A stretch of 54,558 nt of DNA from an uncultured Gammaproteobacteria bacterium (GTDB lineage Bacteria; Patescibacteriota; Microgenomatia; UBA10105; UBA927): contig CAYUZE010000003.1 in the NCBI GenBank assembly GCA_964449585.1, positions 76,385 through 130,942 of the forward strand, written 5' to 3'. Each line of letters starts with the position of its first letter. Position 1 is the first letter of the stretch. Positions 12,876-20,094 of the stretch are shown piece by piece. Both the position numbers and the translations under genes were made by a program. The notes beneath the pieces are model-generated. The model ran no database searches. It was given only the letters and a program-made list of their open reading frames with translations, and had not been told where the DNA came from.

Positions 12876-12903
12876 TTGACAAAGAAAAAATGCGCGGTAT
12901 AAT
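12876..12903 (+). promoter_or_regulatory. sigma70 promoter for rpoBC
   Basis: TTGACA (12876-12881), 16-nt spacer, TATAAT (12898-12903). Confidence 0.8.
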
Positions 12904-12924: not shown

Positions 12925-12957
12925 AAGGAGGCGAACGTTCATTGTTCGCTTCTTTTT
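12925..12957 (+). terminator. Terminator-like hairpin + U-tract inside the rpoB leader
   Basis: aaggaggcgaac / gttcgcttcttt 12-bp stem (2 G-U), 7-nt loop, running into the T-run at 12953-12957. Confidence 0.55.
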
Positions 12958-13004: not shown

Positions 13005-16000
13005 ATGGCATCTAAACCTTCCATTTATAAGCGAGACAACTGGGGCACCGAATACCCCGACCTTCCCAAGTTAGACCTTACGTTAGTCCAACGCGAATCC
13101 TACCAATGGTTTTTGGAACACGGTATCAAAGAACTCCTTGATGAAGTAACCCCGATGACCGACTTCACCGGTAAGAACTGGGAACTCGGATTCGGAGATT
13201 ATTATTTCGGTCGACCGCGACTTACCCCCGAAATCGCACAACAAAAAGGACTCACCTTCGACATGCCGCTCAAAGTAAAAGCAACCCTCACCAACAAGCA
13301 AACCGGTCACCAGCTCACGCAGGAAGTCTTTTTGGGTGACATCCCCGCCATGACGGAACGCGGCACCTTTGTGATTAACGGTATTGAACGATGTGTGGTA
13401 AATCAGCTGGTTCGTTCACCGGGCGTGTATTTGACCGGAGAAGTCGATCCCTCCACGGGACGTACCTTATATAGTGCGGAAATCCGACCGATGCATGGAA
13501 GCTGGCTTGAATTCTTTGTAACACGAAACGACGTATTGATGGTGCGTATCGACCGACGGCGAAAGTTTGTGGCATCCACCTTCCTTCGCGCGGTAGGATT
13601 CTCCTCAAATGAGGAAATCGAACGGTTGTTTGCCGAAGTTGACGTCAATCCCGATCATCAGTTCACCAAGGCAACGCTTGCCAAAGACACGACAACCGAC
13701 AGCAACGAAGCGGTGCTCGAGCTCTATCGCAAACTTCGCCCGGGAGAACCGATCGTCCTTGATAATGCCCAGGAGTTACTCCGCACGATGTTCTTTGACT
13801 ACCGACGATATTCCTTGGAGCGGGTCGGTCGCTACAAGATGAACAAGAAATTGAACCTCGATGTTCCCAACAACAAAGAAAATTGGGTACTAACCCGCGA
13901 CGATATCGTGGGCAGTATTCGTTACCTTATAAATTTGACCAACGGTAAGGGTGACGTCGATGATATCGATCATCTCGGCAATCGCCGTGTTCGACGAGTC
14001 GGCGAATTGGTTGCCACCAATGCATTCCGCGTCGGTATTTTGCGCCTTGAACGATCCATTCGTGAAAAAATGAGTTTAGCCGGACCCAATGCCGAGGATT
14101 TGACGCCGACGCACTTGGTGAATGCCCGACCGATCATTGCTTCTATCAATGATTTCTTCCGAACCAGTCAGCTTTCCACCATCTTGGATCAGACGAATCC
14201 CTTGGCCGAAATCGATAACCTTCGCCGTTTGACCGTTATGGGTGTCGGCGGTATCTCACGGGAACGCGCAAGCTTCTCTATTCGCGACATCAACGCATCA
14301 CAATACGGCCGTGTTGACCCCGTCAGAAGTCCTGAGGGACCGAACATCGGACTTGTCACCTACATGGCATTGTATTCGCGCGTCAATGAATACGGATTTT
14401 TGGAAACACCGTACCGCAAAGTGGAAAAAGTCATGCACGGCGACAAAGCCAAAGTGCGGGCAACCGATGAAATCGTCTACCTTGATGCAAACGATGAGAT
14501 GTATCACTACATTACCCACGCCGAACTTCCGAAGGACAAAGACGGATTTATCAGTGCGGATCGCGTGCCGGTTCGTTACAAGGGAGAGTTTTTGGAAACC
14601 GATGCATCGCTTATCGAATACATTGATATCGTACCGCGCCAGGTGGTAGGTGCACCCGCATCGCTTATTCCGTTCCTCGCCCATGACGAAGCAAACCGCG
14701 CGCTTATGGGTACGCACATGCAATGTCAGGCAGTACCGCTTTTGATCCCGCAATCACCCGTGGTGGGAACGGGTATGGAAGGCGCTGTCGTCGAATCTAT
14801 GGGACGCCTGGTACGCGCCACGGATGAGGGAGAAGTCATCTATTCCGATGCCGGACTTATCAAAGTCAAATACAAAAACGGCGATATTACCTCTTACGAA
14901 CCGCAGAAATTCAAGCGCACCTCACAGTCCACCTGCTATAACCAACGCGTGTTGGTGAACCTTGGGGATAAAGTGCAAAAGGGTGACGTGTTAATCGAAG
15001 CTCCCGCCTCGGAAAACGGCGAATTGGCATTGGGTTCCAACCTTACCATTGCCTACATGAGTTATGAAGGATTGGGCTATGAAGACGCCATCGTCATTTC
15101 CAACAGATTGGTTCGCGAGGACTTACTGACCTCGGTTCACATCGAAGAGCATGAATGCAGTGTCGTCGACACCAAACTTGGGCCGGAAGAAACCACCCGC
15201 GATATCCCCAATGTCGGCGAAGAAGCATTACGAAATCTTGATGAAAACGGTGTTGTCGTAGTTGGTGCCGATGTCGGACCCAACGATATCCTTGTCGGAA
15301 AAATTGCTCCGAAAGGGGAAACCGAACTTACGGCTGAAGAACGATTGCTTCGTGCAATCTTCGGAGAAAAGGCCCGTGAAGTGCGAGACACATCGCTTCG
15401 CCTCCCGCACGGAGAACGCGGAACGGTTATTGACGTCGTGACGCTTGATAAAGAAAAGGGTGACGAACTCGAACCGGGCACCAACAGAAAGATTATCGTC
15501 AAAATCGCGCAAATGCGTAAAGTCGTCGTCGGAGACAAACTTGCCGGACGTCACGGAAACAAAGGCGTTATTTCAAAGATTGTACCGCAGTCAGACATGC
15601 CGTATATGGCGGACGGAACGGTCGTTGACATCATTATTTCACCGCTTTCCGTGTTGAGCCGTATGAACCTCGGGCAATTATTGGAATCGCACCTCGGTCT
15701 TGCGATGAGTAAGATGAATGTCAAAGTCGGGCTTCCCGTATTTGAACATGTTTCCGAAGATCGCATGACCCAACAGATGGAAAAATCCGGATTGTCCTTA
15801 AGCGGCAAGAGCACCCTGTACGACGGGAAGACCGGAGAACCGTACAAGGAACCGATCGTTGTCGGTATCGGCTACATCATGAAGCTTATTCACATGGTGG
15901 AAGACAAGACACACGCGCGAAGTACGGGTCCGTACTCTTTGGTTACCCAACAGCCGCTCGGCGGAAAAGCACAAATGGGAGGACAACGACTTGGAGAAAT

Positions 16001-16379
16001 GGAAGTCTGGGCATTGGAATCACACAGAGCAGCTCACATACTGCAGGAAATGTTGACGATCAAATCCGACGATGTGGTTGGACGTGCCAAGGCATTCGAG
16101 GCAATCGTCAAAGGAACCGACATTCCCGCCTCCACCGTTCCGGAATCATTCAAGGTTTTGGTAAAAGAACTGCAGGCATTGGGTCTTAACGTCATTCCGA
16201 CCGGAGTCGTTACCGCGAAGCCCGCCGTCCTTGCCGATGCGGCAAAAGAAGAAGTGGTAGCCAAAGTCGCCAAGGAACTTGCGGAAGTGAGCGGGGAAGA
16301 AACGGTATCCGAGGAAGCAGCAGAAGATCGCGGTACAGAAACACCGGTAGAACCGAACGAAGGAGAAAACAATGGATAA
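13005..16379 (+). CDS. rpoB: RNA polymerase beta subunit
   Basis: [30 protein letters not shown]. Confidence 0.99.
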
Positions 16380-19300
16380 AAAAGGAAATTTCGCCAATAT
16401 TGTTGACTTTACCGGATTGCTTATCAAGCTTGCCGCTCCCGATGAGGTGAAGGCATGGAGTTACGGAGAGGTTATCAAACCGGAAACGATCAACTATCGG
16501 ACACTGAAGCCCGAAAAAGACGGACTTTTTGACGAGCGCATTTTCGGACCGACCAAGGACTGGGAATGTTACTGCGGCAAATACAAGAGAATCCGCTATC
16601 GCGGCATCGTCTGCGACAAGTGCGGTGTTGAGGTTACCCAAAGTAAAGTACGTCGCGAGCGAATGGGACACATCACGCTTGCCGCGCCCGTTGCCCACGT
16701 ATGGTTCTTTAAAGGAGCCCCGAGTAAGCTTTCGTTACTTTTGGATATTTCCCCGCGTGCGCTTGAAGGCGTTATCTACTTTGCTCAATACCTTGTCGTC
16801 GCCGTTGACGAAGAGGAAAAGAAGAAAGTATTGGCGGGCCTCGTAGAACAGGGAGAAAAGCGTATCGCCGATCTTGCCGCCCGCGTCGATGCGGAAAAAG
16901 AAAAACGCAAAAAAGAAATTGCACGGGAAAAGTCGGAGGTTGTTTCCAATGTGCACGGCAAGGAAGCACAGGATTTGGCAACCAGTGAATTGACGCTTCG
17001 TGAACGCCAGGAATTTGCCACGCTTGATGATCAATTTGAAAAGGAATCGGAAAAAATCAAACAGGTTATCGAGCAGATTACGGCTATTGTTAAAAGTATC
17101 AAGCCGCGGGTTACCATCACGGAAGATGAATACCTGAGACTTTTGGACTATGACGCATCTTCATTCTTGAAGGTCGGCATGGGAGCGGAAGCGATGCTTG
17201 AGGTGGTCAAGAAAATTGATCTTGATAAGCTTGCCGCGGAACTTCGTGAAGAAATCCAGACCTCCAGCGGACAACGCCATGTGAAGGCCACAAAGCGCCT
17301 TCGGGTAGTGGACGGCATGAGAAAATCCACGATCAATCCGACCTGGATGGTCATGCACACACTTCCGGTGTTGCCTCCGGATCTGCGTCCTATGGTGCAG
17401 CTTACCGGCGGCCGGTTTGCCACTTCCGATTTGAATGACTTGTACCGCAGAGTGATTAACCGCAACAACCGTCTGAAGCACCTTATGGATTTGGGAGCTC
17501 CCGAAATTATCTTGCGCAACGAAAAACGCATGTTGCAGGAAGCGGTTGACAGTCTTATTGATGCAACGCAACGCCCGTCGTCACGAACGGTTATCCAACC
17601 GCTTCGCAGTCTTTCCGACATGCTTCGCGGCAAACAGGGACGGTTCCGACAGAACCTTTTGGGAAAGCGCGTTGACTATTCCGGTCGTTCCGTTATCGTG
17701 GTAGGACCCGAATTGAAACTCAACCAATGCGGACTTCCCAAGGAAATGGCGCTTGAAATGTTCAAACCGTTTGTGCTCCGCGAACTTATCGTCCGGGGGA
17801 TTGCACCCAACGTCAAAAACGCAAAGAATGTATTGGAACGCAGAACGCCTGAGGTCTATGACATCCTGGAAGAAATCACCAAGAATCATCCGGTCATGTT
17901 GAACCGTGCGCCGACGTTGCACAAACTCGGATTCCAGGCATTTTATCCGGTACTTATCGAAGGCGCGGCCATCCGCATTCACCCCTGTGTGTGTGCAGGA
18001 TACAATGCCGACTTCGACGGAGACCAAATGGCCGTGCATATTCCGCTTTCCGCTTCTTCACAACAGGAAGCGATCGCGCTCATGTTGCCGACCCACAACC
18101 TGCTCAAACCCGCAGACGGATCGCCGATCACCGTTCCGAACAAGGAAATGGTAATCGGGTGTTACTACCTGACCACCATGAATGCAGCCGATGCTGCCGT
18201 CGATGAAACGACGTTGCATGCCTATGCGGATGCCGCAGAAGCGATCTATGCCTATCAATCAGGAAAAGTCGGACTCAGAAACCCGATCAGATTGCCGATT
18301 GACGGAAAGCTTACCGTTACGACCGTCGGAAAGATCATGTTTAACGAAGTGCTTCCTGAAGGACTTCGCTACATCAACACGCCGGTGAAGGCCGCAACGA
18401 TTAAGCAACTTATCACCAAAGCATTCGGCATGTATTCCAAGGAAGCGGTTACCGAGCTTATCGATGCCATCAAAAACATCGGTTTCTTCGGCGCCACGCT
18501 CTGCGGAGGATTATCCGTATCCGTCTTTGATAACCAATCCATCGAAGAAAAGAACGATATCATCGGGGAAGCGGATGCAAAAGTTAAAGAAATCGATCAA
18601 AACTTCCAAATGGGATTAATCACCCTTGAGGAAAAGAGGCGACTTTCCAATGAAGTCTGGATCGAAGTCACCGAACGTATTGCCGACCTTACTTGGGAAC
18701 GCTTGGATGCCGATAATCCGGTCAAGATGATTATCGACTCCGGAGGAGCGCGGGCAAGTAAAGATCAATTGAAGCAACTTTGTGCTATCAAAGGATTGGT
18801 TGTTGATCCGTTGGGTAAAATCGTGGAATTGCCTACCAAGAGTAACTATCGTGAGGGACTTTCCATCTTTGAGTACGTAACCAGTACCCGCGGATCACGC
18901 AAAGGTCTTACAGACTCGGCACTCAAAACCGCAGATGCCGGATACCTGACCCGACGGCTTGTCGATGTCGCGCATGACGTCATCATCAGAATGGCTGACT
19001 GCGGAACGACCGAAGGATGGACGCTTTCCCGAAAAGACGGTCGTCAGATGGCCTTTGCCAGTCGGCTCGCCGGACGATTCAGTGCGGAAGATGTGGTGGT
19101 TCCCGGAAGCAAAAAAGTGCTTGTCAAAAAAGGTGAGGAAATTACGGAAGATATTGCCCGCGAAATCGACGAAGCAAACGTTGAATCCGTCGTGGTACGT
19201 TCACCGATTGCCTGTACCGCGAAGATCGGTATCTGTGCGACCTGCTACGGACGCGACTATGCGACGACCAAACTGGTTGAGTTAGGCACGCCGGTCGGCG

Positions 19301-20094
19301 TCATGGCGGCACAATCTATCGGAGAACCGGGAACGCAGCTTACCATGCGGGTGAGACACGCCGGAGGAATCGTCGGATTGGACGTTACCCAAGGATTACC
19401 GCGTGTGGAAGAATTATTCGAGGCACGAACGCCCCGGAACCTTTCCCCGGTATCCGAAATCGCCGGAAAAGCAGAAGTGACCGAAACCCCGCAAGGGTAC
19501 AAGGTTAAAGTGGTGAACAACACGATGAAGCCCGTTGAAGAACGCGAGTACTTGGTACCGCTCACTAGTGAGCTGAACGTGAAGACCGGAGATTTGGTAG
19601 CGGCAGGCGACCAACTGGGAAGCGGATATCTGGATATCAAGGAAGTACTGCAGGTTCGCGGACTCGCCGGGGCTCAGTACTACCTCATCAACGAAGTGCA
19701 AAAGGTATATGAGTCACAAGGTATCTCGATTCATGACAAGCATTTTGAGACGATTGCCCGCAAGATGAGCGACAAAGTGCGCATTGATACCTCCGGTGAC
19801 ACGATGCTGCTTCCGGGAGAGCTGGTTGACAAAAACCGCTTCCGAGAAGAAAATGCACGAGTGCTTGCGGAAGGCGGCGAACCGTCAACGGCACACATTG
19901 TCGTCCTTGGAATAACGAGAGCGGCGCTCTATACCGAAAGCTGGTTATCAGCGGCGTCCTTCCAGGAAACGACCAATGTCTTAACCGACGCGGCATTGGC
20001 TACCAAAGAAGACAAGTTGTTAGGACTCAAAGAAAACGTTATAATCGGACGACTCATTCCGGTTTCCCCGGAACGGGCAGCGATTCAGGAGTAA
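16372..20094 (+). CDS. rpoC: RNA polymerase beta' subunit
   Basis: NADFDGD, zinc finger CYCGKYK...[19 protein letters not shown]. Confidence 0.99.

Follow-up and report, generated by a model that had tools for sequence, protein, structure and literature searches.

A basic residue beside the catalytic histidine of the RNA polymerase trigger loop is shared by a large clade of Microgenomatia and accompanied by changes in the bridge helix

Introduction

The triplet TFH in the trigger loop of RNA polymerase is conserved from bacteria to yeast RNA polymerase II. In a stretch of DNA of 54,558 nucleotides (referred to here as the window), whose host is a Gottesmanbacteria-like member of the class Microgenomatia (Patescibacteria), the rpoC gene encodes Val-Arg-His at this place. 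This raises the question whether the deviating loop is an error, a peculiarity of a single genome or the regular state of a larger group, and how the enzyme accommodates it. The original prediction, which was made from the sequence of the window alone, proposed that such a loop might alter pausing or termination and that this could be related to the read-through of terminator-like leaders. Here, the loop is examined in its gene, in its relatives and in comparison with known polymerases.

The variant loop is encoded by an intact rpoC gene

13005-16379, + strand: rpoB, encoding the β subunit of 1124 amino acids (open reading frame, Pfam); overlaps the start of rpoC
16372-20094, + strand: rpoC, encoding the β' subunit of 1240 amino acids (open reading frame and translation; sole match in the genome)
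19336-19368, + strand: arm 1 of the trigger loop, residues 989-999 of β' (sequence, translation, E. coli alignment)
19351-19353, + strand: V994, equivalent to E. coli T934 (alignment to E. coli K-12 RpoC)
19354-19356, + strand: R995, equivalent to E. coli F935 (alignment to E. coli K-12 RpoC)

The rpoC gene is located directly downstream of rpoB, and its start at position 16372 overlaps the end of rpoB. It is of full length and encodes the Rpb1 domains 1 to 5 in order (Pfam PF04997, PF00623, PF04983, PF05000 and PF04998; E-values of 5e-72 to 7e-5), the catalytic motif NADFDGD and the N-terminal zinc-binding cysteine cluster (CYCGKY...CDKCG), and it is the single rpoC match in the genome (1.21 Mb, 31 contigs, 98.8% complete). 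The codons at 19336-19368 of the + strand, cag ctt acc atg cgg gtg aga cac gcc gga gga, lie in the rpoC frame. Alignment with E. coli K-12 RpoC bears out both the motif and the numbering as T934V/F935R that had been given to it: the canonical T934-F935 is absent and V994-R995 is found instead, while the equivalents of the NTP-contacting residues M932 (M992), R933 (R993) and H936 (H996) and the GG tip (G998-G999) are kept. R995 adjoins H996, and a charged residue is indeed placed beside the catalytic histidine. The bacterial consensus from which the loop was said to deviate also holds, as [ML]RTFH is present in 64 of 66 matches outside of the Patescibacteria and MRTIH in the other two. Thus, the studied loop occupies the same gene and position as the canonical β' loop (E. 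coli Q929-G939, QLTMRTFHIGG; Thermus thermophilus M1238-H1242), is devoid of an SI3 insert and of the same length class as canonical loops without SI3, and additionally retains Q929, L930 and T931; however, it differs by T934 to Val, F935 to Arg and, in arm 2, I1134 to Val, and its tip is one residue shorter, a trait that is found class-wide.

A deviating motif could likewise result from errors in sequencing or assembly or from a second, decaying gene copy. However, rpoC is single and full-length, and the sequence is identical in independent studies: near-identical DNA is found in 16 public runs of about 11 sludge, bioreactor and wastewater studies, and the region 19150-19550 is free of differences (0) in Logan contigs, which stem from three independent DNA studies and from one metatranscriptome. 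The metatranscriptome contig, which spans 19178-19366, is no proof of transcription since RNA libraries may contain DNA. The same motif also occurs in more than 190 relatives; MRV[RK]H is present in 120 of the 120 closest database homologues, and the named relatives are Candidatus Gottesmanbacteria, Woesebacteria, Curtissbacteria and "Microgenomates", which places the genome in the class Microgenomatia. Among 30 related genomes, Val934 is encoded by GTG, GTA, GTC or GTT, Arg935 by CGT, CGC, CGG, AGA or AGG and Lys935 by AAA or AAG; the codons drift while the amino acids stay, and the latter are therefore under selection. No support for an error or a decaying second copy was found in these comparisons, the sequencing error that had been named as one possible refutation of the variant loop is rejected, and we consider the probability of such an artefact to be negligible.

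In several public MAG records, whose titles name an 'uncultured Gammaproteobacteria' or 'Pseudomonadales' bacterium, there are RpoC segments that are 51-62% identical to the studied one and carry the Microgenomatia-type loops MRVRH, MRVKH, LRTKH and LHGKR; the organism names of these records look wrong or like placeholders.

The basic residue was gained once within Microgenomatia

The distribution of the loop was analyzed in a class sample comprising rpoB and rpoC of the studied genome and of 88 further Microgenomatia genomes, representing 50 families. The alignment of RpoC proteins from the candidate phyla radiation that had been suggested as a check confirms the departure from the consensus: a basic residue at position 935 is shared by 70 of the 89 genomes from about 39 of the 50 families, whereas canonical MRTFH is found in 19 genomes of 11 families, which are basal. 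In the 70 derived genomes, residue 935 is K (51), R (17) or H (2) and is preceded by T or V. MRV[RK]H is present in all sampled genomes of the same genus, family and order.

In a FastTree phylogeny of concatenated RpoB and RpoC, in which the trait columns were masked and E. coli served as outgroup, the 70 variant genomes without exception group in a single clade (SH-like support of 100), and the families with TFH form a basal grade. The state of position 935, phenylalanine or not, changes once on the Microgenomatia tree; in all, at least 10 residue changes are seen at this position, with exchanges between K, R and H, and Phe never returns. The VRH form of the studied genome lies within an 18-genome subclade of families with VR or VK. 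Judged from these alignments, the variant loop is an ancient, clade-wide state and no oddity of one genome, with VR as one version of the general pattern [TV][KR].

Positions in the bridge helix and arm 2 changed on the same branch

About 2300 aligned columns of β and β' were scanned for separation of the 19 basal from the 70 derived genomes. The best discriminating columns are β' 786, 1134, 773, 1319, 784 and 409, which correspond to the following features of the studied rpoC.

17857-17859, + strand: Y496, equivalent to E. coli W409; Trp in 18/19 basal, Phe or Tyr in 67/70 derived genomes
18865-18975, + strand: bridge helix, residues 832-868 (translation, alignment, column scans)
18877-18879, + strand: V836, equivalent to F773, bridge helix; basal F 19, derived V 62, I 6, L 1, F 1 (alignment, column scans)
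18910-18912, + strand: T847, equivalent to A784, bridge helix; basal A or V, derived T 60 (alignment, column scans)
18916-18918, + strand: S849, equivalent to T786, bridge helix; basal R 10, K 9, derived S 36, T 33, I 1 (alignment, column scans)
19384-19386, + strand: V1005, equivalent to I1134, trigger-loop arm 2; Ile in 19/19 basal, Val in 69/70 derived genomes (column scans)
19942-19944, + strand: W1191, equivalent to F1319; Phe or Val in basal, Trp in 69/70 derived genomes

The changes at 773, 784, 786 and 1134 fall on the same branch as the loss of F935. Since all of them map to one branch, they constitute one evolutionary event and no repeated covariation. Position 281 (R281) of β' also discriminates between basal and derived genomes; W409, F1319 and R281 have no known link to the loop, and some of the co-changes may be hitchhikers. 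The charge class at 786 switches twice on the tree, one of these switches being that between E. coli (T) and the basal genomes. In total, this position has undergone at least 10 residue changes, with exchanges between R and K and between S and T, and a basic residue never returns within the derived clade. Among 167 Patescibacteria genomes, none combines a basic residue at 786 with one at 935, whereas, of the 88 genomes that have retained F935, 29 carry a basic 786. In one derived family (f50), position 773 has reverted to Phe in the presence of VRH. The positions were co-fixed, later turned over within their charge classes and have been subject to purifying selection.

Within the alignment of the 89 class genomes, no column of the β subunit cleanly separates variant from canonical genomes; columns 1281 and 1282 track the variant in part, and the NTP-contacting residue R678 as well as M681 (E. 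coli numbering) are conserved. RpoB of the window has a cysteine, C574 (14724-14726), at the position of E. coli R687 (MQCQ as compared with MQRQ of NMQRQAVP), and position 687 is C, A, T, N, G or S throughout the Microgenomatia sample, whether the loop is canonical or variant. A transfer of this arginine from β to the trigger loop was considered and rejected: R687C is found class-wide and is uncoupled from the loop because the TFH genomes carry the substitution as well.

Two further bridge-helix residues deviate from E. coli. S842 (18895-18897) corresponds to A779, which we take to be a residue of the salinamide pocket, and is Ser in most of the variant clade. R840 (18889-18891) is Arg in all sampled Microgenomatia and corresponds to H777, which has been implicated in the action of CBR703 (PMC3959191, PMC4227799). 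Given H777R and A779S, the sensitivity to CBR703- and salinamide-like compounds may differ.

Trigger loops of other Patescibacteria

In a wider sample of 80 genomes from 63 Patescibacteria families outside of Microgenomatia, most families possess MRTFH together with the bridge-helix sequence EYFISTHG. At least five lineages in this sample gained K935 independently (SSKH/QGKH, DTKH, GSKH, DSKH and HSKH). All five keep F773, have a non-basic residue at 786 and have lost R933; according to the alignment, these lineages seem to have moved the basic residue two positions along the loop, from 933 to 935. A general coupling of positions 935 and 773 was therefore rejected, as the five other K935 lineages keep F773, and, because these lineages and family f50 have F773, position 935 can be basic in the absence of F773V.

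More extreme loops are found elsewhere. Among the loops of families f19, f38, f25, f46, f80, f107 and f70, QMTLHGKRGG and QLTINAKR have both R933 and H936 replaced, and others have the histidine exchanged for Gln (LRTKQ, MRTFQ) or Lys (MRTFK), or R933 for Gln (QMTMQTFH). As read from these alignments, the catalytic His and Arg of the trigger loop are not invariant in Patescibacteria.

This plasticity bears on the possibility of compensated drift, in which a slightly harmful change was fixed by chance under weak selection, as in small-genome symbionts, and was subsequently patched, leaving an enzyme that behaves like the canonical one. Patescibacteria loops are unusually plastic (H936 to Q, R or K, loss of R933, LHGKR, INAKR), β R687 has been replaced across the class, and substitutions that are lethal in yeast occur in natural bacterial trigger loops, 17 of them among 1403 loops of unnamed lineages (Duan et al., PMC12391331). 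However, about 39 sampled families have retained basic 935, and at least 9 later switches between K, R and H have taken place without a return of Phe, and the accompanying changes are grouped at one interface and not scattered. Drift thus appears unlikely, if still a serious competitor; it overlaps with the compensated polymerase favored below, and the sole difference is that it predicts no net phenotype.

Probable contacts between the loop and the bridge helix

Published contacts were transferred to the loop by means of residue equivalences. Yeast D826, K830 and G819 presumably correspond to E. coli D785, K789 and G778 by a constant offset of 41, and we take yeast V1094 to correspond to I1134 (the Pro-Arg anchor) and G1088 to G939. 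The equivalences were checked against the residue names quoted in papers, and E. coli has D785, K789 and G778 as the offset predicts. In E. coli, bridge-helix residues 785-790 form the interface with the trigger loop, K789 contacts L930 and D785 is close by (PMC3077646). In the closed loop of yeast, V1094 is close to D826 and K830 of the bridge helix, and G819 and G1088 form a bridge helix-loop pair (PMC10069792). These anchors set 930 against 789 and 939 against 778, so that the two helices should run antiparallel and residues 934-935 should face approximately 783-786; the contact between 935 and 786 is an interpolation between these published anchor pairs. Furthermore, a model places F935 and I1134 near one and the same group of streptolydigin (PMC11724273), and F935 has been drawn together with M932 and H936 as an NTP-stabilizing loop residue (PMC10716388, PMC13538358). 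Positions 784, 786, 934/935 and 1134 plausibly form one contact cluster, while 773 is located further along the bridge helix at the cap that controls folding of the loop.

Comparison with cyanobacterial and yeast polymerases

The valine at bridge-helix position 773 (V836) is common to the studied RpoC, the cyanobacterial and chloroplast RNA polymerases and the E. coli F773V mutant. Cyanobacteria keep TFH, and their polymerase contains a huge SI3 insert. F773V is natural in the cyanobacterial and chloroplast enzymes, and F935 is not listed among the cyanobacteria-specific changes (Riaz-Bradley et al. 2020, PMC7026648). In E. coli, the F773V enzyme is described as the quintessential example of a mostly closed active site, with fast, error-prone catalysis and slow translocation, and it is insensitive to regulatory pauses, resistant to terminators and toxic (Malinen et al. 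2014, PMC3959191). The exchange also abolishes the hairpin-stabilized his pause (Windgassen et al. 2014, PMC4227799) and accelerates intrinsic RNA cleavage 8-9-fold (PMC7026648). Cyanobacteria are devoid of Gre factors, whereas GreA is present in 154 of 160 Microgenomatia genomes and the variant clade is free of SI3 and has the basic residue at 935. Compensation for missing Gre factors, as in cyanobacteria, was therefore rejected: the GreA/GreB domain occurs in these 154 genomes, basal and derived alike (the tally includes one unpublished genome, G095, none of whose sequence was used). The studied genome encodes two GreA/GreB-domain proteins of about 165 amino acids outside of the window (PF01272 at G000:C4:57600-57818 and G000:C4:40063-40275), and many class genomes encode two or three.

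Because F773V originally emerged as an allele conferring CBR resistance (PMC3959191) and a model of the E. coli complex has R933, F935 and I1134 close to streptolydigin (PMC11724273), resistance to streptolydigin-, salinamide- or CBR-like inhibitors might have selected the changes at 773, 784, 935 and 1134, and the sludge and bioreactor communities of the host are rich in antibiotic producers. However, CBR compounds are synthetic, the change is ancient and clade-wide across habitats, there is no sign of any producer-target relationship, and resistance data for substitutions of F935 or I1134 were not found in the literature covered. Selection by inhibitors is thus very unlikely.

The homologous TFH position of yeast RNA polymerase II, Rpb1 F1084, has been studied by the Kaplan laboratory, and F1084R is the exact change found in the studied RpoC. 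F1084K causes a loss and F1084I a gain of function (PMC10069792, PMC12391331, PMC3325174). F1084R is lethal on its own and is specifically suppressed by Rpb1 Q1078S and Rpb2 Y769F (PMC12391331, PMC10069792). The bacterial equivalents of these suppressor sites, β' Q929 and β M681, are unchanged in the studied genome; unlike the yeast suppressors, the natural solution of the variant clade is found at bridge-helix positions. On this comparison, yeast F1084R and the variant clade would follow the same logic of context-dependent tolerance.

A proposed compensated polymerase

We favor, with a probability of roughly 60%, the view that the variant clade possesses a working housekeeping polymerase in which the replacement of F935 by K or R and the changes in the bridge helix and arm 2, with a charge moved from 786 to 935, compensate each other. 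On one ancestral branch, a basic residue took the place of F935, and 786 changed from K/R to S/T together with A784T, F773V and I1134V; subsequent exchanges between K and R at 935 and between S and T at 786 occurred without crossing back. According to the model, residues 934-935 would face bridge-helix residues 783-786 and position 1134 in the folded loop, and the changes would therefore represent one packing and charge cluster. The positive charge would have moved from the bridge helix (786) to the loop (935), where K/R935 may form a salt bridge with D785, an invariant residue, or contact the phosphates of the NTP next to H936, with the packing presumably adjusted by A784T and I1134V. Loss of Phe is predicted to weaken folding of the loop and F773V to strengthen it, and the two effects might offset each other; T934V would be secondary and nearly isosteric.

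Elongation is probably affected only modestly on balance. Any shift would be expected to favor closure of the active site and to weaken pausing and termination that depend on hairpins. The altered pausing or termination that had been proposed gains at most indirect support, from the co-fixed F773V, which the original prediction had not mentioned and which resists pauses and terminators in E. coli. It is conceivable, at somewhat below even odds, that hairpin-dependent pausing or termination is measurably reduced as compared with the basal relatives. It is tempting to speculate further that an electrostatic contact between K/R935 and D785 replaces Phe and, with F773V adding to it, holds the trigger loop shut, so that the polymerase of about three quarters of the sampled Microgenomatia families would not respond to hairpin-dependent pauses and would respond poorly to intrinsic terminators; we consider this improbable. 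If it were true, the hairpin and U-tract elements of the clade, leaders included, would work unlike the textbook model.

The rpoB leader predates the loop change

12876-12903, upstream of rpoB: perfect promoter, TTGACA-16-TATAAT
about 12925-12957, between the promoter and the rpoB ATG (13005): hairpin of 13 pairs followed by a T-tract

The proposed relation between the variant loop and terminator-like leaders was not supported. A hairpin with a T-tract within 250 nucleotides upstream of rpoB is as common with the canonical loop as with the variant one: of 65 variant genomes, 29 have it, vs 8 of 17 with canonical TFH/F773 (opposite-strand counts of 9 and 2, respectively). As it occurs with both loop types, the leader predates the change of the loop and does not depend on it. 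Its stem often reads GGCGTAC...GTACGCC across many Microgenomatia families and AGGCGAACG...CGTTCGCTT in the family of the studied genome; this conservation suggests a specific RNA element, such as an attenuator or a protein-binding site, and no chance terminator. Loss of Rho was also considered and rejected, as the Rho RNA-binding domain is present in the studied genome and in three of four relatives checked, which cover both loop types, and shows no pattern.

Conclusions

On the evidence of the alignments and the phylogeny, the trigger loop of the studied genome is real and ancient and has been maintained by selection; it modifies a known machine, together with a small group of co-fixed partner positions, and represents no new kind of system. 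In a search of openly accessible literature, one paper on insertion domains was the only one found to join the trigger loop or bridge helix with Patescibacteria, the candidate phyla radiation or Microgenomates; the present analysis adds the phylogenetic origin of the variant, the co-fixed positions and the charge pattern of 786 and 935. A near-universal motif was replaced in the sole essential polymerase and then kept through a very large radiation. The exact exchange of F to R is lethal in yeast and the change of its bridge-helix partner is toxic in E. coli, yet the clade carries both. For polymerase specialists, the variant clade thus represents a natural epistasis experiment, whose small set of substitutions (773, 784, 786, 935 and 1134) offers a means to probe the coupling between the folding energy of the loop, pausing, termination and cleavage, as well as the idea from deep mutational scans that the function of the loop depends on the enzyme context. 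Taken together, the finding suggests caution in applying the pausing and termination rules of E. coli to the annotation of Patescibacteria genomes.
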